Shown here: positions 24,000 to 42,650 of the stretch, one piece after another
Numbering within the stretch: position 1 is the first letter of the stretch
Layout of the letters: each line of letters begins with the position of its first letter
Origin: Escherichia virus ESCO5
Taxonomy: Duplodnaviria; Heunggongvirae; Uroviricota; Caudoviricetes
Direction: 5' to 3' (one strand)
IMG/VR virus record: IMGVR_UViG_2974610597_000001
DNA: 64,000 nt
Translations under genes and position numbers: made by a program
The notes under the pieces: model-generated
Seen by the model: only the letters and a program-made list of their open reading frames with translations
Databases searched by the model: none
Told to the model about the DNA's origin: nothing

Positions 24000-24006
24000 A
24001 CTTCAC

Positions 24007-24954: not shown

Positions 24955-25627
24955 GTGCCAGTGCCTCCTCATAAGAAATTCGGATTTTCCCATTTTTAAT
25001 ATCTTCTAAAGACGCTTTATATTCTTCCCAGTTAATGCCAATAGCAACTTCTTTCTCTTCTTTTGTCAGATTAGCAAAAGGCATAGGATTGTTTCCAAAA
25101 ACATCGTCTGGGTGGATATAAGCCATGATACGAAGTGGACAAGGTATTGCCTGAATGCCCTGATTCAAACCAGCAGCTTTCAAACGGTGTACCCATTCAG
25201 CATCTTCAAAACCATAGCCGTGAGTGTAAGGGCGGAAATAACCCATCTTCTCAACAACGGCACGAGAATACATTGCAAATTGACACATTGCAAGTTCCCA
25301 GAGAATAACTTCTCCTTTACTCCCAACAACTTTATCTTTGAAATACTCCGGCATACCAAAGAAATCCCATCCTCCAGAGACAGCTTGATCTACAAAATAT
25401 GTTTCCCATCCCTCCATGATTGGGTAGCAATCGTCGTCAAAAATAAACCAATAATCATAACCTTCTTCATAAAACTGGTGCATAAGTTCATTCCTGGCGT
25501 AAGCTACACCTTTACGATCTGGATCGTTGAATACTCGAAAATCTGCATGTGGATCTGTTACAAGGTAGTCTTTAAGTGGACGGACACCTACAGTGATAAC
25601 ACCCACTCCGATTTTAATATTTTCCAT
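24944..25627 (-). CDS. Glycosyltransferase-like protein (GT-A-like, acidic DDD motif)
   Basis: 227 aa; YDYWFIFDDDCYP resembles the DxD-containing core of GT-A enzymes. Confidence 0.4.
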   Translation of the reverse strand: MENIKIGVGVITVGVRPLKDYLVTDPHADFRVFNDPDRKGVAYARNELMHQFYEEGYDYWFIFDDDCYPIMEGWETYFVDQAVSGGWDFFGMPEYFKDKVVGSKGEVILWELAMCQFAMYSRAVVEKMGYFRPYTHGYGFEDAEWVHRLKAAGLNQGIQAIPCPLRIMAYIHPDDVFGNNPMPFANLTKEEKEVAIGINWEEYKASLEDIKNGKIRISYEEALAHVK

Positions 25628-25635
25628 TTTCTCTC

Positions 25636-26199
25636 CTAAATAGTTTTACTGTGATCGTGACAGTGTAATAAATGATGTATAGACCGTTGAGGATTTGTTT
25701 GACCTAATCTGTAAATGTGAAACAGATACATTCCCCGCATCAATCCTAACCTCTTTCCTTTTTCATGTAAAGTGCGAGAGAAAATTAAGTCGAATTGGAT
25801 AGATTTTTCTTCGAAAGGAATTTCATTCCACAATGATTTTCTAAAAAGCAAAAAGAAACCTGCCAGAGGTGTTCCGAAAGGAACTTCTTCAACACTCACT
25901 TTATGATATTCTCTTGCAATCTTAGCATATTCTATATGGTTTAGAATATCTGGATCATCGTTAATTTGGTTAGAGAAAAGCTGATAACCACTACCTAACC
26001 TGTTACAAGTTGCACCTATTACATCAAAAGGCGGGTTTGACATAACAAGCTCTTCAAGCATAGATGGTTGATCAGGCAGGAGGAACATTGTATCGGTATC
26101 TCTTAAGCACACCCAACTATCATCTGGAAGAACGGCAATAGCTTCATTGATAGCCTTGCCGATATTTCCTGTCAGATAGGGAGTAATATAATAAATCAT
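25636..26199 (-). CDS. Glycosyltransferase-like protein
   Basis: 187 aa; N-terminal Rossmann-like start MIYYITPYLTGNIGKAINEAI and CLRDTDTMF acidic motif; fourth member of cluster. Confidence 0.35.
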   Translation of the reverse strand: MIYYITPYLTGNIGKAINEAIAVLPDDSWVCLRDTDTMFLLPDQPSMLEELVMSNPPFDVIGATCNRLGSGYQLFSNQINDDPDILNHIEYAKIAREYHKVSVEEVPFGTPLAGFFLLFRKSLWNEIPFEEKSIQFDLIFSRTLHEKGKRLGLMRGMYLFHIYRLGQTNPQRSIHHLLHCHDHSKTI

Positions 26200-27518: not shown

Positions 27519-28121
27519 TTATGGACATTCATACCATTCTTTTTTACCACCGAAGGCCATTACCACATCGCAAATATCCAGACCAGCTTTACCTACACCA
27601 TATGCTTTCAGCTTCCATTCTCCATCTTCACGAACCAGGGAAGCCACGTGGCAGATTGTGTTGCCAGCTACTTCAGGAGCCAGGAAGTCAAAATCCAGAA
27701 TTTCCACATTACGCTCGGAGTCGAAGATTTTAAGCATACCTTCAGAAGCATGACCAAAACGTTTCAGACCTGTATCATCATCAATAGTCAGAACAAAGGC
27801 AATCTCTTGTGCATCAGGAGAGATTTTAGCCAGAGTAATATCAATCTGCTCCATGCTGCCAGTTCCATCACGAACATCGTCACCAGCAAAGGTAGAACGT
27901 TCAGGATCAAACTTATTAGCATAGCAAACCAGATGACGTGCAGACAGCATTTCAGGATTGCCAGCGGCATTGTGACGACAAACCAGTGCACTTACATCCA
28001 GATCCAGTTTAGAATCAGATTTCCAAGAGAACTCCAGGCGTAGTTCTTTCAGAGCCGGAGCAACTTTCTTCAGGGAAATTTTTTCGCTAGAGCCTTTTTT
28101 CAGGGAAATTTTATCAGTCAT
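27519..28121 (-). CDS. terD: TerD-family stress protein
   Basis: 200 aa; N-terminal ISLKKG...EKISLKK, DLDVSA, GDDVRDG, IAFVLTIDD, REDGEWKLKAYG match conserved TerD-domain blocks. Confidence 0.8.
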   Translation of the reverse strand: MTDKISLKKGSSEKISLKKVAPALKELRLEFSWKSDSKLDLDVSALVCRHNAAGNPEMLSARHLVCYANKFDPERSTFAGDDVRDGTGSMEQIDITLAKISPDAQEIAFVLTIDDDTGLKRFGHASEGMLKIFDSERNVEILDFDFLAPEVAGNTICHVASLVREDGEWKLKAYGVGKAGLDICDVVMAFGGKKEWYECP

Positions 28122-28406: not shown

Positions 28407-28635
28407 TTCTTCCTCCTAATATTATCTCCGGTTTATATATACGAAGAATTATAGCATTTTCATTTTCTTTGTCAACCCATTCTTCATAATCAGGCCATAC
28501 ATGAATCTCTACTCTACTTACAATATCTTCCATTCGCACAGTCCCAATGAAATACTCTTTGAGACTGCACATAATGAAAGCTTCTCTCTCGCGCCAATAA
28601 TTTTCTATGACTTGAGAGGCAAGCTCGTCGATCAT
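28387..28635 (-). CDS. Hypothetical protein
   Basis: 82-aa ORF with start/stop overlaps. Confidence 0.3.
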   Translation of the reverse strand: MIDELASQVIENYWREREAFIMCSLKEYFIGTVRMEDIVSRVEIHVWPDYEEWVDKENENAIILRIYKPEIILGGRSVKLRN

Positions 28636-29426
28636 TTTTTAGCACCTACTTTAACAACCCACTCTCCGAACTCTTCAGATAAGAGTTTGTCATAAAGCTC
28701 TGAATCTGTCAAGTCTAAATCTTTAATGCCAATAAAACCAACATTATCATAAGCATTTGCCAGTTCTTTCAGGAAGCCAAACTTCTCATTACCAACGCCA
28801 ACCATGAACCAATAAATAGGTTTATTCTTATTCTCTTCAATAAGACGACGAACAGCACTAGGATCACCATTCTCACCATCCGTCTGGAAGAATACAACAC
28901 CAGGGGTAACGTCAGCACCTGGTTCAGACACAGCTACAACCTTTTCACGCTCTACAGATACTGTTTCAGTTTTACCAAGCAGACGATTAAAGAAGCCTTT
29001 CTTTGGAGCCTCTTCTTGTACCACTTGTTTAGTGGTAATATATTTGGTAACAGTGCCAAAATACTCATCGTAGATATCTGCCATTACAGGGGCGTAATTT
29101 GTTCCACCTCCGATACGAACATTACGCATACATTTACCAACATAGTCATCGTAAACGTCTGCTGTTGCTGGAGTAAGCTCTTGGGAACTCGTATTGAAGG
29201 CCCACATATCAATTTGTTGATTATCGTCGAACAGCATACCAAAAGGAAGCAGTTTACCTACAAAATCACTCACTACCCCACTAGAATATAGACCATGCAT
29301 ACTACCAGAAATATCTAGAGCACATGCTACACGAAGAACAATCTTACCTTCATTCAGGTTCTTATTCTTTTTCAGAGAGAAAGCAAGGTTTTCTTGACGT
29401 TTTTTCAGGCTGATTTTATCGGACAT
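28632..29426 (-). CDS. von Willebrand factor A domain protein with TerD-like N-terminus (TerY-like)
   Basis: 264 aa; N-terminus MSDKISLKK near-identical to terD start; MIDAS motif ALDISGSM. Confidence 0.6.
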   Translation of the reverse strand: MSDKISLKKRQENLAFSLKKNKNLNEGKIVLRVACALDISGSMHGLYSSGVVSDFVGKLLPFGMLFDDNQQIDMWAFNTSSQELTPATADVYDDYVGKCMRNVRIGGGTNYAPVMADIYDEYFGTVTKYITTKQVVQEEAPKKGFFNRLLGKTETVSVEREKVVAVSEPGADVTPGVVFFQTDGENGDPSAVRRLIEENKNKPIYWFMVGVGNEKFGFLKELANAYDNVGFIGIKDLDLTDSELYDKLLSEEFGEWVVKVGAKK

Positions 29427-29772: not shown

Positions 29773-30262
29773 TTATAGGAAGTGTTACAAGAGGATCATC
29801 TTCTTCAATTTCCATCTTGTCATCTTCTGTTTCAATGAGAGTATTATGCACTTTGTGATAAGGGTTGTCAACACGTTTAAACTTATTCTTTTCTGTGCTG
29901 AAAAAACAATCTGGATCTTCTTCACCATCACCCCAACCTTGATTAGGATCTCCGTCAGATTGTTCTGTAGGGATTTCACCTGTAAAGTACTCTTCCAGCA
30001 CCATAGCAATACCGTCCCTTGGATTTGAGGAATGCATTAAATCACAAACCTTACCCCAATCCATAGCCCATTCGAACCGTTCACGAACGCCATTTTCATC
30101 CTCTTTTCCAGAGAAAACACAACCATAACTATCATAGTTGCCATACATCTCTTCAATAACAACACCGTCTTTCAAAAGAAAGAGGTAGCAAGGTGATCCG
30201 TCGAAAGAAGTAGAAAGGGCAGCTTTGCCCGATTCTTTGCACAAAAAACTAAAACAACCCAT
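29699..30262 (-). CDS. Hypothetical acidic protein
   Basis: 187-aa ORF, Asp/Glu-rich C-terminal half. Confidence 0.35.
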   Translation of the reverse strand: MGCFSFLCKESGKAALSTSFDGSPCYLFLLKDGVVIEEMYGNYDSYGCVFSGKEDENGVRERFEWAMDWGKVCDLMHSSNPRDGIAMVLEEYFTGEIPTEQSDGDPNQGWGDGEEDPDCFFSTEKNKFKRVDNPYHKVHNTLIETEDDKMEIEEDDPLVTLPISELQKITKEAYDLGFKIGRGGMRV

Positions 30263-30465
30263 TACAAACCCTCCTTCAGATTATCAAGAGCTACAGTGGT
30301 TTCACAAAATTCTCCATAAGCTTTATGATGTTCCAGAAAAGCTTCGGGTCCACCCCAGTCATTATCTTGTGTATTCCAACCATCAATAAAAGCATCTTCA
30401 ATGATTGTGATCAGTTCTTGTCGGGTTAACTGGATAATATTAGGATCGTTATCGTAGTTAAACAT
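30262..30465 (-). CDS. Small hypothetical protein
   Basis: 67-aa ORF. Confidence 0.3.
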   Translation of the reverse strand: MFNYDNDPNIIQLTRQELITIIEDAFIDGWNTQDNDWGGPEAFLEHHKAYGEFCETTVALDNLKEGL

Positions 30466-30631
30466 CTTCTTCCTCCTCTAAAATATGAAACCCGTAATTA
30501 CAATAGTCCTGAAAGGTTTCGTGCGCAAGATCTTCTATATCCTCTTGAGACATATCATCTTCAATTTCGATATCCACAACCTCATTGCATCCACACCAAG
30601 CAGTTTCAATATTCACTCGTAATATTTTCAT
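30458..30631 (-). CDS. Small acidic protein (missed by ORF track, 57 aa)
   Basis: ATG at 30631 overlaps upstream stop (TAATG); MKILRVNIETAWCGCNEVVDIEIEDDMSQ...; fills an otherwise empty 170-bp gap. Confidence 0.3.
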   Translation of the reverse strand: MKILRVNIETAWCGCNEVVDIEIEDDMSQEDIEDLAHETFQDYCNYGFHILEEEEDV

Positions 30632-30828
30632 TACTCCTCCTCCTCATTGAAGTCAATATCTGCAAGGAGTTCGAATTTACGGAAGTTACGACAACCTTCA
30701 TAAATATAACAATCACGACAAACTGCTAGAACACTTGGGGGATATATGCCTCCCATCGGTGCGAATCGTTTTTCGTCATCATAACGGACACCAATGTCTT
30801 CATCAATTATATAGATACGGATTCTCAT
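30631..30828 (-). CDS. Small hypothetical protein
   Basis: 65-aa ORF. Confidence 0.3.
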   Translation of the reverse strand: MRIRIYIIDEDIGVRYDDEKRFAPMGGIYPPSVLAVCRDCYIYEGCRNFRKFELLADIDFNEEEE

Positions 30829-31937
30829 TTACCAAGCCCTCGTTTCACAGCAGCTACCATCCCGTCTTCCAGAGATTGAACTTCATTAATATAATCAACA
30901 CGAGCAGCACGGGCTTCCGTATTGATGCGGTTAGTTTCTTCCAACATCTTAACCAAGTTTTCCTGATCGTGACGCAGAGTTTCAATATCCAACACTTGAC
31001 GGTTAGCCAGTGCTGCTGCTTCGATCTGATTCTGTGTGGCAAGATCGCTACCTAGTTTAATTGCCAGGTTAAATTCATCAAGAACGTTATTCTGCGTCTC
31101 TGCTGCTTTCATTTGACGTAAGCTCTCGATATACATTGAGAAGTTAGCAGAGTAAGCAGGAATAACATTATTTACTATGTTACGCGCAGATCGCATTAAG
31201 CTTGCAGAAACTTTTTGCATACCTTGTACACGCGGTCCCATTTGGACACACAGTAGGCGCAACGCCTTTAAATCTGCAATACGAATCTCCAGGAGATCCA
31301 AAGTATCTCGGATCACTTGTCGCTGTTCTACGGCATCTTCTGGAAGAGCAGCCAAAGCTTGTTCTTCTTTTTCATAGGTTGCTGTTAGAAGCTGCATATC
31401 TCGGTTCAAACTTGCAGCATATTGTCCAATAGCTTGGTGTAGCTTTTCAAGATATACCAAGGAATCTTCTTCTTTGCGAATATCCATTTGAAGGTTCTTT
31501 ACCAACTCTTCAATACGGTTATTAACATTATCAAACTCCCCAAACAGGTCTTCTTTCATACCCATAACTTTTTTAATGAGTTTAGTAATACCCTTGCTTT
31601 GTTTAATAGAGTTTGGATCAAGTTGTTTTGCCTGTTTAATCAAGGCTGTGAGTCGTTCACTCATCTGATCGCCTTGATTACTACGTTGATGTTTTAACAC
31701 CTCGGCATTCAAGGAACGCAAGGTTGTTCCTGCCTCTGCCCCAATCTCTTCGATCTCTTGTCGGGTCATAGAAGGTAAAACTGGAACTTCTTGCGGTGCT
31801 GCTGGTGCATAAACAGGACTGGCATCTAACACACTTGGAGCAAATACAGATTTACTTGCATCTGTTGTTGCAGCGAATACACTCATTTCAGACTTCTTCT
31901 GACCACCAGTAGCTGCTTTTAAAAATGGACTTGTCAT
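30825..31937 (-). CDS. TelA-like (toxic anion resistance family) coiled-coil protein, tentative
   Basis: 370 aa, long alpha-helical/coiled-coil architecture with Ala/Pro-rich N-terminus; size, composition and Ter-gene context suggest TelA/KlaA family; no diagnostic motif verified. Confidence 0.3.
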   Translation of the reverse strand: MTSPFLKAATGGQKKSEMSVFAATTDASKSVFAPSVLDASPVYAPAAPQEVPVLPSMTRQEIEEIGAEAGTTLRSLNAEVLKHQRSNQGDQMSERLTALIKQAKQLDPNSIKQSKGITKLIKKVMGMKEDLFGEFDNVNNRIEELVKNLQMDIRKEEDSLVYLEKLHQAIGQYAASLNRDMQLLTATYEKEEQALAALPEDAVEQRQVIRDTLDLLEIRIADLKALRLLCVQMGPRVQGMQKVSASLMRSARNIVNNVIPAYSANFSMYIESLRQMKAAETQNNVLDEFNLAIKLGSDLATQNQIEAAALANRQVLDIETLRHDQENLVKMLEETNRINTEARAARVDYINEVQSLEDGMVAAVKRGLGK

Positions 31938-32524
31938 TCTTCATTCTCCTCTTCTGCATCTCTTATATATGGTGAAACACCGTACTCTTTAGCTACTTTA
32001 ACCCAATCATCCCATTTATACAACCATAATTTTCCTTCAGTTCCTTCTTTATCTGATTTCAACCACATGTTAGGTTGCTTGCCTGGGTACATGCGATTAG
32101 GTTTACGATTATAACCTCTAACACATCTTGTCGCAAACCTATCTACCAGAACAAGAACATATTTATATTCGTGGTTCAACGGCTCTTTGGAAGTGGCTTT
32201 AGGATTAGCTCCTAATTCTGCTGCCAGTTTTTGCCAATGAGCACCGTGTCTACTAAACTTACCCATACAACCATCAATAGCATGAGCAATTTCGTGCTTC
32301 ATTGTATCCACGATCATATCTCTTGTAGAGTTCTTATGCAAGTGCCAATTTACAACAACAATTTTATCTCGGTAGTTGCACCAACCGAAAGAGTTATTAA
32401 CTTTGTTTCTAACACAAGCTTTATATCCTGCTTCACGTAACATGTTGTAGTAAACAGGAAAATCTTCTTTTATTTCCTGCATCACTTCCCACCACAAGAG
32501 TTGCAAGTCTCTCTCGGTATGCAT
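31934..32524 (-). CDS. SprT-like zinc metallopeptidase domain protein
   Basis: 196 aa; HExxH motif in MKHEIAHAIDGCMGKFSRHGAHW, preceded by conserved Trp-rich N-terminus. Confidence 0.5.
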   Translation of the reverse strand: MHTERDLQLLWWEVMQEIKEDFPVYYNMLREAGYKACVRNKVNNSFGWCNYRDKIVVVNWHLHKNSTRDMIVDTMKHEIAHAIDGCMGKFSRHGAHWQKLAAELGANPKATSKEPLNHEYKYVLVLVDRFATRCVRGYNRKPNRMYPGKQPNMWLKSDKEGTEGKLWLYKWDDWVKVAKEYGVSPYIRDAEEENEE

Positions 32525-32527
32525 AAC

Positions 32528-33121
32528 TTACACCTTAAAAGCGAAATGCGTGGTCGTGGCTTCAAAATCAGGGCCAGATAAACTTGCACTGAAATCTGAA
32601 ATATTTGTAATTAAAAAGCTTTTATGCATACCTAACACAGCCACGCTTTCAATATCTTCTACTAACATTTCAATCATGTTAGAAACATGGCTGAACGTAG
32701 AGTTTTGTTTTTTGATGGTGTAGAAAGAAAGATTCCCACCTGCTATATAAGACACCTCTTCAAAATCTTTAATCGTATATTGTGTGCCATCAGTAAAGAA
32801 AATGGTAGCTTTATTAGTAGCACGTTTCTTGTTTTTTGGTCCTTTTTTACGTTTACTGCGAGTAGGCAAACCGTTTGGAAATACCGTAGCTACAAATTCT
32901 TCAGGAGAAACCTCCTTACCGAAATCATAACCGTAAGAAACAGCGTCTATAAACTCGTCGTCTTCATTTTTAAAATAATGAAAATAGGGCCAATTTGAGA
33001 GATTATCGAGCATCTTATGCTCATCCACAGCAGAGAACGTATCCCTCAAAGCACGTGTGATTTGCAAAGCATTAGGCAAACTTTTAACACCTGTAATGGA
33101 AGTACGAATAGAAATTGTCAT
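32528..33121 (-). CDS. Hypothetical protein
   Basis: 197-aa ORF with KR-rich central patch. Confidence 0.35.
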   Translation of the reverse strand: MTISIRTSITGVKSLPNALQITRALRDTFSAVDEHKMLDNLSNWPYFHYFKNEDDEFIDAVSYGYDFGKEVSPEEFVATVFPNGLPTRSKRKKGPKNKKRATNKATIFFTDGTQYTIKDFEEVSYIAGGNLSFYTIKKQNSTFSHVSNMIEMLVEDIESVAVLGMHKSFLITNISDFSASLSGPDFEATTTHFAFKV

Positions 33122-33135
33122 TGTTTTTCTCCTTA

Positions 33136-33573
33136 TTAACGTCGCTTGCTACGAGATGAACTCTTTTTACTTAAAGGACTATTGTAAGATTTACGAGTTG
33201 TATAGCTACTATTTGTTTTAAAAGTTTGTCTCGGCTTTTCATAAGTTTTTATCTCTTGTTTAGGCTTACTATAAAAATTAGTTTTCGGTTTAGGTGTATT
33301 ATAATGCTTATTAATAATCGTTCTGTTATCGTTATAATCCCCACTGCTACGATTACTACCGCCACTCATCATATGCCCTAACAACATACCTGTAGCAAAC
33401 TCACCAACACCGCTACTACTAGAACCGCCACCATTGTTGATAATAGTTGTATCTCCGTCAGATCCTTGTTGAGCGTATTGTTGAGGAGGTTGTTGGTATT
33501 GTGCAGGATTTGTTTCATCCTCGCAAGCTGTTAAAAAGATACAACCAATTAAAATCAGGGCTAGTTTTTTCAT
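33136..33573 (-). CDS. Lipoprotein, Gln/Gly/Ser-rich
   Basis: Start refined to ATG at 33573 giving MKKLALILIGCIFLTAC (signal peptide plus lipobox LTAC). Confidence 0.45.
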   Translation of the reverse strand: MKKLALILIGCIFLTACEDETNPAQYQQPPQQYAQQGSDGDTTIINNGGGSSSSGVGEFATGMLLGHMMSGGSNRSSGDYNDNRTIINKHYNTPKPKTNFYSKPKQEIKTYEKPRQTFKTNSSYTTRKSYNSPLSKKSSSRSKRR

Positions 33574-33760
33574 ATTTGCTTTCCTCGTTTTGGCTATTAA
33601 TACATCTGTGTTTGAAATCTCCAGAGAAGCAATAAAGTTGCTCTCCATCTCGGTATAAACTCACTTTACTGCCGTTGATTACGCTTGTCAATACAAAAAT
33701 TACAACAAACAACCCTATTGCAAAACAAATATTTTCAAACACAACCAACAAGTATTTCAT
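33515..33760 (-). CDS. Small membrane protein
   Basis: 81 aa with one hydrophobic helix (VVFENICFAIGLFVVIFVL). Confidence 0.3.
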   Translation of the reverse strand: MKYLLVVFENICFAIGLFVVIFVLTSVINGSKVSLYRDGEQLYCFSGDFKHRCINSQNEESKYEKTSPDFNWLYLFNSLRG

Positions 33761-34107
33761 TTTAAAAATACCTCATCATCAGTTTCATTATCCCAGAAGA
33801 ACAAGTCCCAACCATTCGGATCATTCCATTTAGCTGCTGGAGAAGTCCATATTTGCTCGATATCAATATTCAAAACTTCACCGTTTCGTTTTGAAACAGC
33901 TTTAGTTAATTCCCAACGGGATACAGGCTCCACTTCCCCTGAACCACTCCCACAACAAGCTACCACATTAGGAGGCAAATTAATTGGATCTTTGGTCACA
34001 ATCATAACGCTTACCCCAGGGTAAACTTTTGAAAGATAATCTAAAACGTAATCCACATCACCAGATAAATCCCAAACAAGTTCTTGAATTTCATCAAAAT
34101 TATTCAT
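33757..34107 (-). CDS. Hypothetical protein
   Basis: 116-aa ORF. Confidence 0.35.
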   Translation of the reverse strand: MNNFDEIQELVWDLSGDVDYVLDYLSKVYPGVSVMIVTKDPINLPPNVVACCGSGSGEVEPVSRWELTKAVSKRNGEVLNIDIEQIWTSPAAKWNDPNGWDLFFWDNETDDEVFLK

Positions 34108-34149
34108 AAGTCTCTCCTATAAAATAGCCTCCCGAAGGAGGCTCATCTA

Positions 34150-35223
34150 TTAAACAGCAGCTTCTTCTTTTTCAGGGAAGATAAAGCTTGCAATAACACC
34201 AAGAGATAATGTGCCTAGAACAATCATCAGACTTACGTTAGGGGAAATATCATGCGGGAGGAATGACCACTTGGCATGAAGTGTTTCACCGAACGGGTGA
34301 TACATAAGTTTAGCACCAACAAACACCAGAACCACAGCAACAGCTTTCTCTAAGTGAACCAGATATTTCACAGCTACACTTAACACAAAGAAAAGTGCAC
34401 GTAAACCAAGAACAGCCATCAGCATTGCAGAATAAACTAGCAGAGGTTCTTGTGTCACACCGATTACAGCCGGAACTGAATCAAAAGAGAAGACAATATC
34501 TGTAAGCTCAATAACAAACACACAAAGAAGAGCAGGAGTTGCATATTTAATACCATTCTTAATGGTAATGAACTTTTCACCATCTAGTGCATTGTGCACA
34601 GGCAGAACTTTACCTACTAAACGAACAGCCCAATGCTTAGAGTAATCAATATCCTCTTCTTCGTCACCACCTTTGATGATAGCCACGGCAGACCAAGCTA
34701 CAATCAAACCGAACAACACTTGGACCGACCAATGAAGGTTAAACAAAGCGGTCCCTGCTGCAACAAAAATACCTCGGAAGACAATGGCTCCTGCAATCCC
34801 CCAAAGTAAAATCTTATGTTGAAGATGTGTGCTCTTAATTCCAAAGCTTGCAAAAATTGCCATGAATACCATCAGGTTATCTACAGAAAGACTCTTTTCC
34901 AACACATAGCCACTTAGGAAAAGCGCGGCAAACTCTTTACCATGTTCTACCCAAATGAATGCGTAATATCCTAAAGCTAAAGCAATCCAAAAAACAGACC
35001 AAAGCAAAGCAGATTTAATTCCAATTTCTTTATTTTTACCATGTTCTACCCAAATGAATGCGTAATATCCTAAAGCTAAAGCAATCCAAAAAACAGACCA
35101 AAGCAAAGCAGATTTAATTCCAATTTCTTTATTCTCTTTATGACCAAAGAAATCGATACCAATAGACAATGCCAAAATACCAACTAAAACAACTACATCA
35201 ATAATTGGGAAACCGAGTTGCAT
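34150..35223 (-). CDS. terC: TerC-family integral membrane protein, containing an in-frame 33-aa tandem duplication
   Basis: 357 aa, multiple TM helices; signature LEKSLSVDNLMVF; segment KNKEIGIKSALLWSVFWIALALGYYAFIWVEHG occurs twice consecutively. Confidence 0.75.
   Translation of the reverse strand: MQLGFPIIDVVVLVGILALSIGIDFFGHKENKEIGIKSALLWSVFWIALALGYYAFIWVEHGKNKEIGIKSALLWSVFWIALALGYYAFIWVEHGKEFAALFLSGYVLEKSLSVDNLMVFMAIFASFGIKSTHLQHKILLWGIAGAIVFRGIFVAAGTALFNLHWSVQVLFGLIVAWSAVAIIKGGDEEEDIDYSKHWAVRLVGKVLPVHNALDGEKFITIKNGIKYATPALLCVFVIELTDIVFSFDSVPAVIGVTQEPLLVYSAMLMAVLGLRALFFVLSVAVKYLVHLEKAVAVVLVFVGAKLMYHPFGETLHAKWSFLPHDISPNVSLMIVLGTLSLGVIASFIFPEKEEAAV
34939..35136. repeat. Near-perfect 99-bp tandem direct duplication inside terC coding sequence
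   Basis: 34939..35037 and 35038..35136 identical over about 95 bp (accatgttctacccaaatgaatgcgtaatatcctaaagctaaagcaatcc...), diverging only in last few bases. Confidence 0.9.
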
Positions 35224-35240
35224 TCTTTTCTCCTCTCTTT

Positions 35241-35301
35241 GCGGGGAACTATTCCCCGCTTCATTTGATATATATCTTACTCTTTTTAAGAACTATGTCA
35301 A
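35241..35301 (-). promoter_or_regulatory. Promoter plus 5'-UTR hairpin cassette driving terC
   Basis: Minus-strand reading: TTGACA - 16 nt - TAAGAT, then hairpin GCGGGGAA-TAG-TTCCCCGC, then SD AGAGGAG and ATG; same architecture and near-identical hairpin as cassette at 57455..57510. Confidence 0.5.
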
Positions 35302-35304
35302 CAC

Positions 35305-35526
35305 TTATTTTGTTGAATGAGAGGAAAAGATTCCTCGTAATACCGCCAGAATAAACGAAACACAAACCACGGTCCAGAAGGTTACTGGGACAGTGATATC
35401 TGCATGACCCATAACTTCAGCAACATAGTTGTAAGCCAGCAACAGTAACCAAGCTGGAATCAAACTAAGCATAAAAGCAATAACAAAAAAGCTTACCACC
35501 GCAATAATACCTGCAAAAACACCCAT
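35305..35526 (-). CDS. Small membrane protein
   Basis: 73 aa, two hydrophobic helices. Confidence 0.3.
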   Translation of the reverse strand: MGVFAGIIAVVSFFVIAFMLSLIPAWLLLLAYNYVAEVMGHADITVPVTFWTVVCVSFILAVLRGIFSSHSTK

Positions 35527-35538
35527 ACTAATCTCCTC

Positions 35539-36012
35539 TTAAAGTTTATAAATAGTCACATCGTGACCTGTTTTTACTAAAGTTTCTTCAATCATCACTT
35601 GGATGATAGCCCAATTACCTCCAGCATATCCAGCGCCAATCATAGGTAAGCCGATCTTACATTTTTGGTCACGGAGAAGCACATCATTAGCCATAGCTAT
35701 TAGTGCATCGTAAAGTGCATCATAGTCCAACTGACGACCTTTAGCATTGTATCCGTAACGGTATTGCCCGTATAGATTATATACCAAAGGGTCTGATTGT
35801 TCGTCTGGCACCCCTAAACTAAAAGAACCTAACTTACTTTGATCACCAGCCATTGTGTCTAAATCTGCCGCATATGCATAAGGGAATGCTCGTTTAATTT
35901 GCGGAGCAATTCCTGCCCCCATATTACACATACAATTGCAACAATGAGCAATAACAGTTACTTCACCTGCTTTAGCGGCATCAATAAGATTACCTGTTTT
36001 CATTTTAAGCAT
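35539..36012 (-). CDS. Macro-domain protein (ADP-ribose binding/hydrolase family)
   Basis: Start refined to ATG at 36012 (TAAGGAG 6 nt upstream); VIAHCCNCMCNMGAGIAPQI and KIGLPMIGAGYAGGNW correspond to the two Gly-rich ADP-ribose-binding loops of macro domains. Confidence 0.55.
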   Translation of the reverse strand: MLKMKTGNLIDAAKAGEVTVIAHCCNCMCNMGAGIAPQIKRAFPYAYAADLDTMAGDQSKLGSFSLGVPDEQSDPLVYNLYGQYRYGYNAKGRQLDYDALYDALIAMANDVLLRDQKCKIGLPMIGAGYAGGNWAIIQVMIEETLVKTGHDVTIYKL

Positions 36013-36025
36013 TTTTAGCTCCTTA

Positions 36026-36853
36026 TTACAGAATGTGTTGTTTTGTGTAACGATCCAAGAATTCAAAGTTTTCAGCATACTTTGAAATTCGGTTGTAACC
36101 TTCTCCCAAACATCCGAAGAAAAGTTGCTCTACATAGTAGTGTGGCAATTGGCTAAGAATGATTTTGAAGTCTTCGTGATTTTGGCCCATAAGATACTTA
36201 ATAGGACGAACAAGACACTGTGCATCACGTTCTTCATTAATCATTTTAACAAACGCTTCTGGTGTATTGATATAGTTAAAATTCAGTTTAGCTTCAGTAT
36301 CTGCTTGATTACCTTCATATTTTGCAAAATACAAGAAGTAAACATCATTTTTAACTTGATTTTCATCAAGAATCTCAATCAGTTTGTCTTCATGAGTTCC
36401 GGTGATATTTACATCATCAATGAACACAAGCTTCTTATCACCCCAGAATTCTTTGTTGCAGTAGAATGTATCCCCATCAATAAGTTTCTTACGACTAGCT
36501 TTATCCAAGAAACCATAATCGTTGATATAGCTAACTTTACGATGAATAATATCCAGTTCTGCTGAACGACCTTGATCATATTGTGCTTGCAACATATTAA
36601 AGTAATTAATAAAATGATCTGTCATCATTGTTGCAGCATTGTGCACATGGTTATAAGGAGAAGGGATGATAACAAATTGTTCCCCAATATGTTTCATTGC
36701 CACTTGAGCAAAAAACTGAAGTACCAATTCTTTACCCATACGACGCGCAGCTTGGTTACTACCAAATTTCAATTTTGAATAGTCTTTGATATCAAAAGTA
36801 GCAGTTTCCAGGTCATCAAATTTATTTGCAAAAATTTGAGTTTGATTACGCAT
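36026..36853 (-). CDS. Phosphoribosyltransferase-like protein (type I PRT fold)
   Basis: 275 aa; PRPP-binding-type motif KKLVFIDDVNITGTHED (hydrophobic run, two acidic residues, then T-G-T). Confidence 0.45.
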   Translation of the reverse strand: MRNQTQIFANKFDDLETATFDIKDYSKLKFGSNQAARRMGKELVLQFFAQVAMKHIGEQFVIIPSPYNHVHNAATMMTDHFINYFNMLQAQYDQGRSAELDIIHRKVSYINDYGFLDKASRKKLIDGDTFYCNKEFWGDKKLVFIDDVNITGTHEDKLIEILDENQVKNDVYFLYFAKYEGNQADTEAKLNFNYINTPEAFVKMINEERDAQCLVRPIKYLMGQNHEDFKIILSQLPHYYVEQLFFGCLGEGYNRISKYAENFEFLDRYTKQHIL

Positions 36854-37502
36854 TTACAATTTCTCCTCTTTTAAGTTTCTCTAGTAAGTCGTTAGGGTTC
36901 TTAATATGACAGAAGTTAATCCCTATGTCAACACATTTACCATCAAATTCTTCGCTGTCCCCAACATGTAAAATCTCTTCAGCCTTCAAAGGAATGCTTG
37001 AATATGTGGCGGTCCTAACAAAGAATCTAGGATCTGGTTTACATAACAGATGTTCGTCTGAAAAATGCATAAATTCAAAACAATTCCAACTGTCGAACAT
37101 ACAAGCACGACGCAAAATATCCCCAGATATAAAATTAGTATTGCTTTTAATACTAAGATCATATTTACCAGACAAGTATAGCAAACAAACTGGCAAATCT
37201 AAAGCGATATGTGGAGGAAATTTAAGAAACCATTGCTCACAATCAAAACGCATTTGTGCAGATTCTACAGGGGTTAAACCTATCTTTCTTCCCAACATAT
37301 TCCATGCATATGCTACACCTTCTGCACACCCATTTAGTGCAGCATTATCCATAATTTCTTTGGCATCTTTATATGCTTCTTTTGCCGCACGTTCAGACAT
37401 TCTACCATATGTAGCAATAGTGTGCGTACGTGCATCTGCATAGTTTTGATTGGCAGAAATAAGAGTATTCCATACATCAAAAGAAATATGTTTTATTGTC
37501 AT
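36846..37502 (-). CDS. HAD-superfamily hydrolase-like protein
   Basis: N-terminal ISFDVWNTL (degenerate motif I), CKPDP (motif III Lys), HVGDSEEFD (motif IV); start codon uncertain (ATG at 37502 or 37520). Confidence 0.4.
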   Translation of the reverse strand: MTIKHISFDVWNTLISANQNYADARTHTIATYGRMSERAAKEAYKDAKEIMDNAALNGCAEGVAYAWNMLGRKIGLTPVESAQMRFDCEQWFLKFPPHIALDLPVCLLYLSGKYDLSIKSNTNFISGDILRRACMFDSWNCFEFMHFSDEHLLCKPDPRFFVRTATYSSIPLKAEEILHVGDSEEFDGKCVDIGINFCHIKNPNDLLEKLKRGEIVNA

Positions 37503-37503
37503 A

Positions 37504-38109
37504 CTAGGCCCACCACGCATCAAGATTTAAGTTACTGTCTACCACAACTTGTTCTATGTGGTAGCCTTTTATCTGTATCCCACTGTTCAAGAGCATATCA
37601 TATGCTTCATTGAAACGCAACTTATCTTCTGCGGAATATAAGCGAGCATTGTAAAATCGGTAATCAAGTTCTTCAGCATTAGAAGAAATACGGAAGAAGT
37701 TTGTTTCTACTTCAGGATCACTTGCTGAAGTTTTAATGTGAACTTCTCCGTAATTTTCTTTGCTTAGATCCATGAAAAGAACACAGGCAACATGTTTAAA
37801 CATTCGTTCCAGTTTGTAACGAACAACATTGAAACCTGCGTTCTCAAGTTTTTCTACACATTGCAACATTAACGTAGTGTCGAGATCGCTTTGATACTTT
37901 GTTAACATACGATCACGTTGAGACTTTGTATCCCGATGTAAATCAATTGTTGTGCATTTGGCACCAATGATCTTAGCTGCTTTCATCAACTCTTCAGAAC
38001 TAACGTTAGATAAAGTAAGATGAAAATGGGCTTTCCACACTTTTTTAGCAGGGACACCAAAAGATTTATCCCCACTATTCGGCATGTTGACTACTACACT
38101 ATGTTGCAT
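37504..38109 (-). CDS. Hypothetical protein (weak 2H-phosphoesterase-like features)
   Basis: 201 aa; one clear H-x-T-x motif (HFHLTLS), second motif degenerate (VHIKTS). Confidence 0.25.
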   Translation of the reverse strand: MQHSVVVNMPNSGDKSFGVPAKKVWKAHFHLTLSNVSSEELMKAAKIIGAKCTTIDLHRDTKSQRDRMLTKYQSDLDTTLMLQCVEKLENAGFNVVRYKLERMFKHVACVLFMDLSKENYGEVHIKTSASDPEVETNFFRISSNAEELDYRFYNARLYSAEDKLRFNEAYDMLLNSGIQIKGYHIEQVVVDSNLNLDAWWA

Positions 38110-38124
38110 TACTTATCTCCTCAC

Positions 38125-38349
38125 TTAAAATGGAAGTCTTTGAAGTTCATCTCCTCCGATATCAAGTAATTTAGCAACATCTCGATCAGAAAGCAACTCT
38201 TTTCTTTGTAAAATATCCACAAGGGTTGCAAGAATGTCCTTAACGTCCCGATCACTGTTCTTCAAAAGTTCTCCTGCCGTCCCTACCCTATCTCCTACAG
38301 CAAAATATGTAACCATAAAACCTCCTACGCTAATCTGATTGCCAACCAC
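38125..38349 (-). CDS. Small hypothetical protein
   Basis: 74-aa ORF downstream of nrdG. Confidence 0.3.
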   Translation of the reverse strand: MVGNQISVGGFMVTYFAVGDRVGTAGELLKNSDRDVKDILATLVDILQRKELLSDRDVAKLLDIGGDELQRLPF

Positions 38350-38800
38350 TCGCCGTTTTGGTCCATAATCTTTGATTATCTGACCCTCTGAAAGGTTTTG
38401 TGGTTGGATTGTTTATTTCATACTTTCCGTCTACAATAATGTCAACAAGATTTTTAATATACAAAGGCACTTCCTCAAAAGTATATCCTGTATACACCAT
38501 TATATCTTTGCTTGACCCATAAACGTCTCTAACCTTTTCTATAAGGTTTTTAACATTGTAAATATTCTGCGGATCTAATGGTTCTCCTCCTAAAATTGTT
38601 AAACCTTTTACAAACGGTCTTGACAAATCTTTTAAAACTTGCTCTACATTTTCGTTAGTGAACGGTTTCCCATAAGAATAAGACCAGGCTTTCTGGTTAA
38701 AACAGCCACGACAACCGTGGCTACAACCACTAACCCAGAGGGAGCACCTAACTCCCTCACCATTAATAAGATCTACAGGTTCATATCCTGCAAAATTCAA
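38330..38800 (-). CDS. nrdG: Anaerobic ribonucleotide reductase activating protein (radical SAM)
   Basis: 156 aa; radical-SAM cluster motif CSHGCRGC (Cx3Cx2C) near N-terminus; overlaps nrdD stop (ATGA). Confidence 0.75.
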   Translation of the reverse strand: MNFAGYEPVDLINGEGVRCSLWVSGCSHGCRGCFNQKAWSYSYGKPFTNENVEQVLKDLSRPFVKGLTILGGEPLDPQNIYNVKNLIEKVRDVYGSSKDIMVYTGYTFEEVPLYIKNLVDIIVDGKYEINNPTTKPFRGSDNQRLWTKTASGWQSD

Positions 38801-40611
38801 AGATGTTTCTCCCTTTGCAAAACTTCCTGCATTTTACCTTTGTTATAAGGCCGTGAATTAGGGGCAGAAAGATACCCTGATACACGTCTAACTACAGAAA
38901 TAGTTTCTTCTTCATGGTTGCCACAATTAGGACACTCAAACCCTTTAGCCGTTGCCTTAAATTCTCCATGAAAACCACACTTAAAGCATTGATCCACGGG
39001 CTGATTAATACCAAAATAGTGAATATGTTCATAAGCGTAGTCTACTAAAGTCTCCAAAGCTTCTAAGTTATTCTTTAAGTTTGGTGTTTCGACATAACTT
39101 ATGTTACCACCATTGCTAATCTGTGCAAAACCTGCTTCATAATCCCATTTTTCAAAAGGATTTGTTACCAACCATACAGGTTGATGAAAAGAATTAGTAA
39201 GATAGTCTCTTTCTACCAGACCTGGATATTTTTCATTTAAAGCTGTTGCAAATTTATAGCACAAGGATTCTGCTGGAGTTCCATAAAGACTAAATGCCAA
39301 CTTAGATCGTTCTTTAAACACAGCACACACATCTTTCATATGTTGCAGAATGTTTTTACCTAGTTCCTTTTTATCTTTTTCCTCTGGATAAAGGATTTCC
39401 AAAGCTTCGGCAAGACCTACATAACCAATACTAATAGAAGCATAACCACCTTCAAACAAAGCACCAATTTCATCGTTGGCATTTAAACGCGCTAAAGCCC
39501 CTTCCATGAAAAGAATAGGGTTTTCAGATGCTTTGGTATGTCTGATACGGTTTACACGTAGCATGTGAGCATCGTAGGCTATCTCCATATGTTTATTAAG
39601 AAGATCGGTGAAAGATTCTCCTTTACTTCTCGCTTCCGCAGCAATCAGAGGCAAGTTGATAGAAACTACTCCAAGGTTGAATCGTCCATCATATTTTTCT
39701 CCTTGTTCGGTGGCATAGTACGACAAAAAGGAACGACAACCCATACTCGTAACGGTACCATCTGCTGATCCCGTAACTTCTTTGTTCAAAGGAACAGAAA
39801 TAAAATCTGGATAAATACGATCAGCACAACATGCCAAAGCTTGTTGCTTAAGGTCGTAGTTAGGATCACTAGGTTTCATGTTAACACCTTCTTGTAAAAA
39901 GAAAATAACTTTAGGGAATACAGGCGTTACATGATCTTTACCTAGACCGTTACTATGCACTTTAAGATAGTTAGCTGTGATCATTCTGCCAAAAACAGAG
40001 GTATCCAGACCCATACTGATTGTAATAAAAGGAGATTGTCCATTAACACTCATTAAAGTGTTAACCTGATACAAAAGAGTTTGCATAGCGTCATATACAT
40101 CTTGTTCGGTCATTTCTAGGGCTTCTTTCCTTGCATAACAACCGTAGCGACGTTTGGTTATCTCCATGTTTTTAAGGAAACTGGCTTCAACATAAGGACT
40201 AAGACCTTTATCAATGTGCGCACACGTCTGACCTCCATACTGACTGGAGGCAACAGCTTGGATGATTTGAGTTAGCACTGTAGTAGCTACTCCAATAGAT
40301 TTTGGTTTTTCTATCTGTGCAGCACCGATCTTAAAACCATTCTCTAACATATCTTGATAATTAACAAGACAACAGTTTGTAAGAGGAGAGAGCAGATAAT
40401 CCAAGTCGTGAATATGTCCAAAACCTTCTGTATGCCATTCTGACAAGTTTTTTGGCAGTATCTGTGTCATTGCCATATGTTTGCTTAAAATCCCCGCCAA
40501 GAGATCCCTGTGCGTGTTAACAAGGTGGGAAGGTTTGTTTGCATTCTCTCTAGTGTATGTTTCTGAAGTGCGATCTAAAAAAGAAAAAACATCTTGGTAC
40601 AAATCTTTCAT
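38797..40611 (-). CDS. nrdD: Anaerobic ribonucleoside-triphosphate reductase (class III RNR)
   Basis: 604 aa; C-terminal zinc ribbon CFKCGFHG...CPNCGNHE and glycyl-radical motif RRVSGYL. Confidence 0.85.
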   Translation of the reverse strand: MKDLYQDVFSFLDRTSETYTRENANKPSHLVNTHRDLLAGILSKHMAMTQILPKNLSEWHTEGFGHIHDLDYLLSPLTNCCLVNYQDMLENGFKIGAAQIEKPKSIGVATTVLTQIIQAVASSQYGGQTCAHIDKGLSPYVEASFLKNMEITKRRYGCYARKEALEMTEQDVYDAMQTLLYQVNTLMSVNGQSPFITISMGLDTSVFGRMITANYLKVHSNGLGKDHVTPVFPKVIFFLQEGVNMKPSDPNYDLKQQALACCADRIYPDFISVPLNKEVTGSADGTVTSMGCRSFLSYYATEQGEKYDGRFNLGVVSINLPLIAAEARSKGESFTDLLNKHMEIAYDAHMLRVNRIRHTKASENPILFMEGALARLNANDEIGALFEGGYASISIGYVGLAEALEILYPEEKDKKELGKNILQHMKDVCAVFKERSKLAFSLYGTPAESLCYKFATALNEKYPGLVERDYLTNSFHQPVWLVTNPFEKWDYEAGFAQISNGGNISYVETPNLKNNLEALETLVDYAYEHIHYFGINQPVDQCFKCGFHGEFKATAKGFECPNCGNHEEETISVVRRVSGYLSAPNSRPYNKGKMQEVLQREKHL

Positions 40612-40714: not shown

Positions 40715-42130
40715 TCATTTGGAGAGGAATTGTCTTCCCATGATCTTACCGTTCTTCACAGCGGTCCCATCGTGTCCATTGTAATCCCAGGTTCCATCGA
40801 TATTACGCAAGAAGCTATCACGAACAGTATAGGCTTTACCGTTCTCTACTTTACTTTCTTCCACAATGATTGCCATAACAAGCTTATTTTCAATTTCGGT
40901 AGTAACCGATTCTTTGATACCCTCTGTAACTTCACGATCATATTGGATATAAACTCGCTCCTCGGTTACTTGCACGTCTACCACATTTTTAAATGTGTAG
41001 GTCTGTTGCGTAGTGTAGAGGACACGAACGACACTCTTCTTACCTACCGGAGGCTTCTTACGAGGCTTACGGTAACGTGGTTTAGGGTTGTTAGTTGGAA
41101 GCCAACCAACAATATCCCGATCATATCCAACATGACCCCAAGTGAAATGCGTAGCCGATCCACTATCCGTAGTTCCGTCACGAAAGAGAACTTCTACGTG
41201 ACCACCACAAGGGCGGTGTCCACCATTATTATAGTTGTATTTTGCCGTGCGCGGGAGAATGAAGTATTCTTTAATCGCCCACTCTTCCAGATTGTCGATA
41301 TTCCAAGTGAATACTGTTCCCTTAGCAACATCTGTTTGACCATTGTTGAAGCGAACCTGCACGAAATCTTCCGAAGGCATAACACCTGTGTTCGGCAGAT
41401 ATTCAAATGCAGTATCTTCCGCTACAAACTGTTCTTCCTCTTGCTCCTCAATACTTGGCACAGGCGCAGCTTCATCGTATTTCGCAGCAAACATATTTTT
41501 AAATTCTTGAGCCGTGACTTCTACAAGGCCGCGATCACCAGTAGCAGCAGAGTGTGGGCGTGGTAAATCCCCAACTTCAATATGCATTGCATCTAAGCCT
41601 GCTTGACGATCAAAGAAGATAACCTTGCGGAATTGTTTATCTTTATATTGTGGCAGTTCATACATACTTGGATCGATTGTCTTCAAACGTTCAGCATCTT
41701 CTGGCTTCCAGAAGCTTTTACCTGTTGCAAATCTAAAGTCTACCAGTAGTTTAACAACATCTCCTAATGATAAACTATCTGCATCTACGAAAACGTCTTC
41801 GATTCCCAATAACCCTGATTTCTTAAGAATCAAATCTAACATGTAACCTCCTGTGGTTTGTTCTGCGTCTGGATAACGATCAACACTGGTGCTGGTTACA
41901 CCGTTTATTTCACCAGTGGAGGCATTGTAGGAAATATATGGGAAGGTCATATCGTTCATTGCAAAATCACCTGAACAGGTTGGATCATCTTCTCCCTCCC
42001 AGCCATACACCTTCACAATACCTTCACACAATTTGTCATACACACCAGCGCGACGTGCTGCTTCAGCAACTTCCTGTTTACGGGCAAATTTATTAATCAT
42101 GATTCCTCCTGTTAATTGCCATAGATGCAC
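40715..42130 (-). CDS. Hypothetical protein (471 aa)
   Basis: Long ORF, no recognisable catalytic motif; basic C-terminal patch PKPRYRKPRKKPPVGKK. Confidence 0.4.
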   Translation of the reverse strand: MHLWQLTGGIMINKFARKQEVAEAARRAGVYDKLCEGIVKVYGWEGEDDPTCSGDFAMNDMTFPYISYNASTGEINGVTSTSVDRYPDAEQTTGGYMLDLILKKSGLLGIEDVFVDADSLSLGDVVKLLVDFRFATGKSFWKPEDAERLKTIDPSMYELPQYKDKQFRKVIFFDRQAGLDAMHIEVGDLPRPHSAATGDRGLVEVTAQEFKNMFAAKYDEAAPVPSIEEQEEEQFVAEDTAFEYLPNTGVMPSEDFVQVRFNNGQTDVAKGTVFTWNIDNLEEWAIKEYFILPRTAKYNYNNGGHRPCGGHVEVLFRDGTTDSGSATHFTWGHVGYDRDIVGWLPTNNPKPRYRKPRKKPPVGKKSVVRVLYTTQQTYTFKNVVDVQVTEERVYIQYDREVTEGIKESVTTEIENKLVMAIIVEESKVENGKAYTVRDSFLRNIDGTWDYNGHDGTAVKNGKIMGRQFLSK

Positions 42131-42650
42131 GAGGTTCGGCTATGGCTGTTGCATAAATATATGGATGACCTTGTGGGGACAATCTTGTTCCGAATGACCC
42201 TAATTCTAAACCATTCATGTCTTCCACGTCAAGCCCTATTTCTGTTTCTACAATTCTTGTTTGGACTTTGTAGTAGGTCCAGAAGAAGTATCGCATTTCT
42301 TCGGCATACTCTTTCACTTCACCAAAGCTGGGATAGAACTCAATCAACTCCAGCTTCAAGAAGATGTTGAAGTGAGAATCATCCAACACTTCCTCTGTGC
42401 GGTAACATGGTGTCAGGGCCATGTAGGGATGACCAGCGATAAACTCGTAGCCATCCTTTTCCATTTGCAAGAATGATTGCTCGGCACTGGCAACATAAAA
42501 CTTCCCATTAGGATGCCCCAAAGGAGCATCTTCTTTGCCAGGTGGCAGTGTGAATGCCAAAATATCTGCATCCACTAAATAAGGAACATCTAACATTTCA
42601 GCAAAGCGTCCATAACTCTGGATGGCTTCGGCAATCACACCTGTGTTCAT
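42093..42650 (-). CDS. Hypothetical protein
   Basis: 185-aa ORF. Confidence 0.35.
   Translation of the reverse strand: MNTGVIAEAIQSYGRFAEMLDVPYLVDADILAFTLPPGKEDAPLGHPNGKFYVASAEQSFLQMEKDGYEFIAGHPYMALTPCYRTEEVLDDSHFNIFLKLELIEFYPSFGEVKEYAEEMRYFFWTYYKVQTRIVETEIGLDVEDMNGLELGSFGTRLSPQGHPYIYATAIAEPRASMAINRRNHD

Follow-up and report, generated by a model that had tools for sequence, protein, structure and literature searches.

Do four adjacent genes of Escherichia virus ESCO5, at positions 35539–38109 of a 64,000-nucleotide stretch of its DNA (the window), encode one pathway or several unrelated functions? Their products are a macro domain (gp189), a phosphoribosyltransferase (PRTase; gp188), a HAD-superfamily protein (gp187) and a 201-residue protein (gp186, or p201). 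The original prediction had proposed the macro, PRTase-like and HAD-like genes as a trio processing ADP-ribose or nicotinamide adenine dinucleotide (NAD) metabolites, had named the biosynthetic arm of a Ter-like system as the other option, and had regarded the sequence by itself as insufficient to choose. Comparison of gene contexts does settle the choice. We conclude that the stretch is probably a composite of three separate things: a Ter-associated enzyme pair (gp187 and gp188), an orphan macro domain (gp189) and an accessory gene (gp186). The composite would sit in the early, nucleotide-metabolism arm of ESCO5. All four open reading frames (ORFs) were confirmed as ESCO5 gp189–gp186:

35539..36012, minus strand: gp189, a stand-alone macro domain and predicted ADP-ribosyl glycohydrolase of the TARG1/DarG/SCO6735 (ALC1-like) class, from hidden Markov models, Protein Data Bank (PDB) matches and alignment
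36026..36853, minus strand: gp188, a type I PRTase of the PRTase_3 "ComF-like" family, from Pfam PRTase_3 (PF15610), motif and fold
36846..37502, minus strand: gp187, the HAD-superfamily partner of the PRTase, from motifs I–IV and adjacency to PRTase_3
37504..38109, minus strand: gp186, a 201-residue protein of a virus-restricted, uncharacterised family, from family conservation and predicted fold

The analysis upheld all four domain assignments.

The HAD–PRTase_3 pair and its Ter neighbours

gp188 matched Pfam PRTase_3 (PF15610) over residues 11–266 with 142.1 bits against a cut-off of 28.7. Its phosphoribosyl pyrophosphate (PRPP)-binding loop, LVFIDDVNITGTHE, consists of a hydrophobic strand, two acidic residues and a TG(T/S) phosphate-binding turn, and D146, D147, T151, G152 and T153 are invariant in 43 homologues. 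The predicted fold has the PRT core, with ComF as its nearest relative, and a helical, hood-like C-terminal domain (approximately residues 186–275) that is specific to the PRTase_3 family. Score, loop and fold together bear out the PRTase-like call. The original prediction had also asked for Prs-like and classical PRTase architectures to be told apart, and gp188 proved to be a single-domain type I PRT rather than Prs-like. NAD+ reconstitution by NARP1 uses the Prs-like Adps and the NAMPT-like Namat; a Prs-like, NARP1-type identity for gp188 was dropped on the basis of fold and architecture. PRTase_3 was found in 157 phage records, and literature searches on PRTase_3/PF15610 returned no experimental work.

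The HAD partner, gp187, falls below the Pfam threshold (PF00702, 19.5 bits versus 26.4), while its homologue at locus L002 has a PF00702 hit on record. An alignment of 38 HAD partners showed D9, T13, S120, K155, D182 and D187 to be conserved; motif II (S120), motif III (K155) and the GDxxxxD of motif IV (D182, D187) are each kept in 37–38 of the 38. Thus, the HAD-like call stands on its conserved motifs despite the subthreshold Pfam score. Motif I of gp187 reads FDVWNTL, retaining the nucleophilic Asp and the Thr, with Trp at the +2 position in 35 of the 38 partners. The same FDVWNTL occurs in PDB 2om6, an archaeal HAD of unknown function. Annotation places the start codon of gp187 at the ATG of 37502 and not at the TTG of 37523.

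To place the pair in its genomic context, PRTase_3 loci were taken from viral contigs, bacterial genomes and metagenomes, ORFs were scored against seeds from the window and L002, and neighbouring genes were clustered. The resulting census comprises 38 PRTase_3 loci other than the window, with Ter genes counted within 7 kb. The HAD gene lies directly upstream of PRTase_3, in the same orientation, at 37 of these 38 loci. Its phage hosts are the Stephanstirmvirinae, jumbo phage XaC1 and uncultured viral contigs of up to ~350 kb; its bacterial hosts are rhizobia, Bacteroidales, Pedococcus and a Peribacteria metagenome-assembled genome. After HAD, the next commonest neighbours all belong to Ter systems: TerC (13/38), TerD (11/38), vWA-TerF (11/38) and TelA (9/38). 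The macro gene (6/38) and the 201-residue gene (4/38) are lesser neighbours. Linkage to Ter genes recurs in unrelated phages and bacteria that lack an Nrd or replication context (L002, L012, L016, L017, L019, L020, L035, L038 and L040–L042).

The window itself carries four Ter genes and a small membrane-protein gene near the pair:

27519..28121, minus strand: gp206, a TerD-domain protein, the ligand-/Ca-binding Ter component (Pfam TerD, 3.2e-28, 98.9 bits)
28632..29426, minus strand: gp203, a vWA-TerF-like protein (Pfam vWA-TerF-like, 1.6e-37, 130 bits)
30825..31937, minus strand: gp197, a TelA-like protein (Pfam TelA, 3.2e-33; phrog_5890 "tellurite resistance", 1.6e-139)
34150..35223, minus strand: gp191, a TerC/Alx-family membrane protein (Pfam TerC, 4e-40; TIGR03718 Alx, 4.4e-100)
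35305..35526, minus strand: gp190, a 73-residue predicted membrane protein, p73 (phrog_16065, 5e-43)

gp206 also matched the TerD of L002 in a phmmer search, and p73 keeps its place between the macro and TerC genes in L007–L011. PRTase and HAD are therefore paired, and in the window they lie within 9 kb of TerD, TerC, TelA and vWA-TerF genes. The HAD pairing, the Ter neighbours at other loci and the four Ter genes of the window together argue for PRTase and HAD as the biosynthetic arm within a phage Ter system. This option of the original prediction holds for gp187 and gp188; it does not extend to the macro and 201-residue genes.

Ter systems occur widely, and resistance to phages, colicins and tellurite has been associated with them. 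A Ter-associated module of a PRTase and a HAD phosphoesterase was reportedly predicted by Anantharaman, Iyer and Aravind in 2012. Comparative genomics describes a biosynthetic arm in which PRTases and HAD phosphoesterases yield a nucleoside- or nucleotide-like signal, with TerB and TerD binding ligands and TerC, TelA and TerF-vWA acting at the membrane (PMC7824862). Such systems occur in jumbo phages and in "certain other related smaller tailed phages" (PMC7824862; Iyer et al. 2021).

By this analogy, gp187 and gp188 would be an obligate two-enzyme pair, the small-molecule arm of a phage Ter system whose remaining parts would be the TerC, TelA, vWA-TerF and TerD proteins encoded 1–9 kb downstream on the same strand. 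gp188 would join PRPP and a base-like nucleophile into a ribonucleoside 5'-monophosphate analogue, and gp187 would then remove or transfer the phosphate of that product. The resulting nucleoside-like compound would serve as a ligand or signal for the membrane-associated TerD, TelA and TerC components, and the phage may use it to condition the envelope of the infected cell or to exclude competitors. We know of no identified small-molecule product of a Ter PRTase/HAD arm.

A further arrangement of the pair was seen at two phage loci (L014, L015) and four Sinorhizobium/Ensifer loci (L027, L029, L032, L034), where a ClpP-like serine protease gene lies ~0.8 kb downstream of PRTase_3. The ClpP-like gene of L029 matched Pfam CLP_protease at 5.9e-18, and no Ter gene lies within 10 kb at such loci. 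HAD, PRTase_3 and the ClpP-like protein may constitute a separate three-gene system that makes use of this pair.

The macro domain and the 201-residue protein

gp189 is borderline in Pfam (Macro, 22.1 bits; cut-off 22). Its sequence matches in the PDB are SCO6735 (5e3b, 4.7e-13), BT1257 (1e-8), TARG1 (~2e-6) and DarG (5m31, 4.6e-6), and it matched the PADLOC DarG model at 1.9e-10. Against the NCBIfam DarG model it reached 34.8 bits, with a cut-off of 250. Both Gly-rich ADP-ribose-binding loops were found (NMGAGIA and IGAGYAGGNW) and, with the SCO6735, TARG1 and DarG matches, they confirm the macro-domain call. The Gln of its NLYGQYRY segment aligns with Q85 of SCO6735, K84 of TARG1 and K80 of DarG, and the position of TARG1 D125 is Ala, as in SCO6735. 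Because of this Gln at the catalytic position and the Ala at D125, we assign gp189 to the SCO6735 subtype. Additionally, the His and Asn of its AHCCN segment align with SCO6735 H24 and N27. SCO6735 efficiently removes thymidine-linked ADP-ribose from DNA, requires Q85 and N27 to do so, and protects against DarT (PMC9411070). Two phage factors that counter DarT systems have been described: AdfM, a macrodomain anti-DarT factor of nucleus-forming phages reported in 2026 (PhiKZ gp104; PMC13309987), and AdfN, a NADAR-family enzyme that defeats DarTG (PMC11825919).

Going by its alignment, gp189 most plausibly works alone as an anti-DarT-type de-ADP-ribosylase, and a role in counter-defence is probable. 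It would most likely take ADP-ribose off DNA (the thymidine-linked adduct made by DarT2) or off proteins, acting as an orphan, "antitoxin-like" counter-defence enzyme independently of the Ter pair. A search of the literature for Phapecoctavirus together with macro domains found no experimental work.

gp189 has homologues in 2,982 of 50,697 phage records (~6%), ~19 times the count for PRTase_3; they include proteins of T4-like, Felixounavirus, Vibrio, Acinetobacter and Rheinheimera phages. The macro gene lies within ~1 kb of the Ter pair only at Phapecoctavirus- and Justusliebigvirus-type (Stephanstirmvirinae-type) loci. Since its records so outnumber those of PRTase_3, we regard gp189 as a widespread independent gene. 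This spread, together with its scarcity in the PRTase_3 census, does not sustain the proposed ADP-ribose/NAD trio as a unit.

Three records contain gp189 homologues (35–41% identity) that adjoin or overlap an annotated ribose-phosphate pyrophosphokinase gene: NC_055801.1 (Vibrio phage Pontus), MG649967.1 (Thalassa) and OZ196903.1. A pairing of macro and Prs-like proteins in Vibrio phages, recalling NAD-reconstitution modules, is possible.

The fourth protein, gp186, had been noted for a single H-x-T-x motif. That motif (H30-L-T32) is present, and the gene is real and conserved: a profile search of 1.8 billion representatives recovered 250 relatives at E<1e-3. Two ferredoxin-like halves make up its predicted fold, an eight-stranded alpha+beta structure. 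H30, T32, R97, K99, E101, E122, H124, S142, N144, E186, D191 and D197 are invariant and occur at alternating positions in predicted beta-strands. A 2H phosphoesterase identity, which calls for two H-x-T/S-x motifs on a LigT-like bilobed fold, was rejected, as gp186 has only the one HxT and not that architecture.

An N-terminal NUDIX domain is present in ~10 of 67 sampled relatives and an HD_4 domain in one, and many relatives of ~310 residues begin with a MazG-like domain. These fusions to NUDIX, MazG-like and HD phosphohydrolase domains suggest that the probable role of gp186 is the binding or processing of a nucleotide or phosphorylated metabolite. Two Justusliebigvirus-type loci, L007 and L011, retain the HAD–PRTase–macro–p73–TerC order but have no gp186 gene. 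Elsewhere, relatives lie beside Acb1 or near NADAR, DUF4326, SIR2, PARG-like, RNA ligase and dCMP deaminase genes, and in Rheinheimera phages the gp186 homologue is 26 kb from the macro gene. Its absence from L007 and L011 and its placement among unrelated genes elsewhere indicate that gp186 is an independent accessory gene. It would be an optional member of the locus, from a virus-only family.

One such context is that of an uncultured 110-kb phage (L004/L005, 8001–9021), where a gp186 homologue of 36% identity overlaps the start of the gene for Acb1, an anti-CBASS 2H phosphodiesterase. There is a NADAR gene 4 kb downstream, and L005 also has a DUF4326 gene ~8 kb upstream.

Layout of the window and neighbouring genes

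Positions 30000–39000 of the window are 100% identical to NC_047776.2/KX664695.3 (ESCO5; Phapecoctavirus, Stephanstirmvirinae), and the flanks that were compared agree with NC_047776.2 base for base save for two indels, both at repeats. At ~61220 the window has 55 bp fewer than NC_047776.2, at a short direct repeat (ATATTTACCACGTAGGGCGGCAATGGTGCCGC...). Because of these missing bases, we take the window to be a near-identical variant or version of ESCO5 and not the deposited record itself.

The TerC gene contains an in-frame tandem duplication of 99 bp (33 codons) at 34936–35133, reported by TRF as 2.0 copies with 100% identity. The duplicated unit is a predicted transmembrane segment, KNKEIGIKSALLWSVFWIALALGYYAFIWVEHG, which thus occurs twice. 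The duplication is absent from NC_047776.2, and the 24 other best-matching records listed also appear to lack it, since their matches span ~8.9 kb of a 9,001-base query.

Between ~14 kb and ~50 kb of the window, all genes are encoded by the minus strand. The co-orientation of the four genes noted in the original prediction is therefore correct but provides no evidence of an operon. A single base separates gp186 from the start of gp187 (37504 and 37502), gp187 and gp188 overlap by 8 nt, and the PRTase–macro and macro–p73 gaps are 12–13 nt. An 81-nt gap ahead of TerC contains a promoter-like site and a hairpin: on the minus strand, 35241–35301 carries TTGACA, a 16-nt spacer and TAAGAT, then a GC-rich hairpin (GCGGGGAATAGTTCCCCGC) and a strong ribosome-binding site. 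A scan for consensus promoters was of no use in defining operons, as it returned 45 promoter-like sites versus 40.9 expected. No Rfam family matched anywhere in the window at gathering thresholds, and the idea of a yybP-ykoY manganese riboswitch ahead of the TerC/Alx gene was dropped.

On the other side of the locus, a small gene separates gp186 from NrdG:

38125..38349, minus strand: gp185, a small conserved ORF (annotated at 63 residues) between NrdG and the 201-residue gene (phrog_17780, 1.1e-39)

gp185 is syntenic in L007–L011 and L022. Further along, 42093–42650 holds a 185-residue gene annotated as "histidyl tRNA synthetase" between DNA helicase and annotated ribonucleotide reductase genes. 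Being much too short for a full histidyl-tRNA synthetase, its product may be a fragment that is class II aminoacyl-tRNA synthetase-like or HisZ-like. Four consecutive annotated glycosyltransferase genes occupy 23055–26199, just downstream of primase/helicase, adenine methyltransferase and DNA polymerase genes. One has a weak match (1.3e-3) to the TET-associated glycosyltransferase family TAGT, a hint that the DNA may be glycosylated.

Alternative readings and known systems

Several points weigh against a Ter pair flanked by an independent macro domain and an accessory gene. Motif I of gp187 does not conform to DxDx(T/V), the general acid/base at Asp+2 being replaced by Trp, so plain phosphomonoester hydrolysis by this protein is not assured. 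We know of no established substrate or product for any PRTase_3 protein or HAD partner, and the "nucleoside-like metabolite" of Ter systems is itself only a computational prediction. The rhizobial HAD–PRTase_3 pairs have no Ter gene within 10 kb. For gp189, the DNA-positioning lysines K34 and K89 of SCO6735 are not conserved (Ala and Gly are aligned with them, with an Arg two residues ahead of the K89 position). Its similarity to the AdfM of PhiKZ, gp104, is marginal (BLASTP E 0.012 over 22 residues), so gp189 belongs to another branch of the class and is no orthologue of AdfM. Lastly, the HAD–PRTase–macro–p73–TerC order is kept in Stephanstirmvirinae-type loci down to ~62–64% PRTase identity, and for this reason the macro and Ter genes may be functionally linked in this one lineage. 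As to completeness, the full Ter module described in 2012 is said to include an ATP-grasp protein and a second PRTase as well. Neither turned up in the cluster, where no search was aimed at them, and gp188 is the only PRTase annotated in the section of the genome that the window spans.

The same four genes could instead act together on ADP-ribose- or NAD-derived metabolites, with the macro domain releasing ADP-ribose and the PRTase and HAD enzymes then processing it, for instance to rebuild NAD+ or to destroy ADP-ribose-based immune signals. The genes are tightly packed, with the overlap between HAD and PRTase, 13 nt between PRTase and macro and the single base between p201 and HAD, but tight packing is general throughout the 36-kb minus-strand block. 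The HAD–PRTase–macro block is syntenic in Phapecoctavirus- and Justusliebigvirus-type loci; ~30 loci outside the Stephanstirmvirinae type, however, carry HAD–PRTase_3 without an adjacent macro or p201 gene, accompanied by Ter genes or by nothing recurrent, and the macro gene is far commoner than the PRTase among phages. While a macro homologue adjoins a ribose-phosphate pyrophosphokinase gene in some Vibrio phages (H33, H35, H36), recalling NAD reconstitution, and p201 relatives lie near Acb1, NADAR and SIR2 genes, gp188 most resembles ComF and is neither Prs- nor NAMPT-type. Moreover, the annotation of the window-covered part of the genome contains no gene for Prs, NAMPT or NMNAT. We consider a single pathway of this kind quite unlikely. 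A related proposal centres on gp186 as a new virus-specific enzyme or ligand-binding fold whose targets would be nucleotides or immune signals derived from them, used by different viruses on its own or in fusion with NUDIX, MazG-like or HD domains. In Phapecoctavirus it would work with the neighbouring HAD, PRTase and macro genes in producing or degrading a ribose-phosphate messenger; we hold this to be unlikely, if the least so of the alternatives.

Two further explanations concern parts of the locus. The PRTase/HAD pair might make a modified nucleotide or nucleoside for modification of phage DNA or RNA, leaving the Ter genes as independent membrane auxiliaries. Its position favours this, immediately downstream of NrdD/NrdG, which encode the anaerobic ribonucleotide reductase, and inside the replication module, as do the four glycosyltransferase genes ~11–14 kb away beside primase and polymerase genes. 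The recurrence of TerD, vWA-TerF, TelA and TerC at loci lacking that context speaks against it, and the neighbour clustering showed no co-variation of the pair with any base-modifying or DNA-transferase gene, leaving such a role improbable. Finally, gp186 might be an orphan antitoxin-like counter-defence protein directed at AbiE-type nucleotidyltransferase toxins. Two PADLOC models, PDLC02277 and PDLC02279, both labelled "AbiEi", match all 67 sampled family members over their full length (best E 4e-49). The Pfam AbiEi families do not match the gp186 family, and the contexts seen were all phage-like and had no AbiEii gene. The PADLOC matches reflect either wrong labelling in the defence database or an antitoxin-like family that has gone unrecognised, and we give the AbiE explanation the lowest probability of all.

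Under the composite reading, then, a Ter pair, a macro domain and an accessory gene share the stretch. Domain identities, folds and gene linkage are what the analysis demonstrates, whereas every substrate and the biological role are inferred. The Ter arm has already been predicted computationally, and the macro class is known, with anti-DarT activity recently shown for a related phage protein; gp186 is the uncharacterised piece. Lytic coliphages of the ESCO5/phAPEC8 group grow easily and carry a compact two-gene version that is strictly conserved; they offer a tractable system for finding the Ter molecule and for learning what use a virulent phage has for a "host defence" module. A good candidate for a widespread eraser of DNA or protein ADP-ribosylation is the SCO6735-type macro gene, which would extend the AdfM result beyond nucleus-forming phages. 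The gp186 family comprises ~250 phage sequence clusters, with structural relatives among giant-virus proteins and clear nucleotide-hydrolase associations.

Compared with known systems, gp188 is only 10% identical in sequence to ComF (PDB 7p0h). The zinc-finger region found at the N terminus of ComF is missing from gp188, the helical domain at the C terminus is particular to gp188, and its genes of context are HAD and Ter genes, whereas those of ComF are competence genes. The likeness to NARP1 lies in phage-encoded ribose-phosphate chemistry that could in principle be connected to ADP-ribose. However, gp188 is neither two-domain Prs-like nor NAMPT-like, and neither the Prs-like ADP-ribose-pyrophosphate synthetase nor the NAMPT-like transferase of NARP1 is annotated in the window-covered part. 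Like AdfM and DarG2, gp189 is of the same broad class and has the same plausible role in erasing ADP-ribose from DNA, in this case as an orphan phage macro domain. Unlike DarG2, it is a single 157-residue domain without the C-terminal DarT-binding domain, and Gln replaces the catalytic Lys80 of DarG. Its best solved-structure match by sequence is SCO6735 of Streptomyces coelicolor, also single-domain and of similar size, with which it shares the Gln, the Asn27 and His24 equivalents and the GxGxxGG loop; gp189 is phage-encoded and its activity is predicted. In contrast to jumbo-phage and plasmid Ter modules, the pair described here belongs to a 149-kb lytic coliphage (Phapecoctavirus), its HAD protein has Trp at Asp+2, and macro and p201 genes are inserted beside it. 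What it shares with the Ter biosynthetic module is a PRTase_3 and an adjacent HAD-fold enzyme linked to TerD, vWA-TerF, TelA and TerC.

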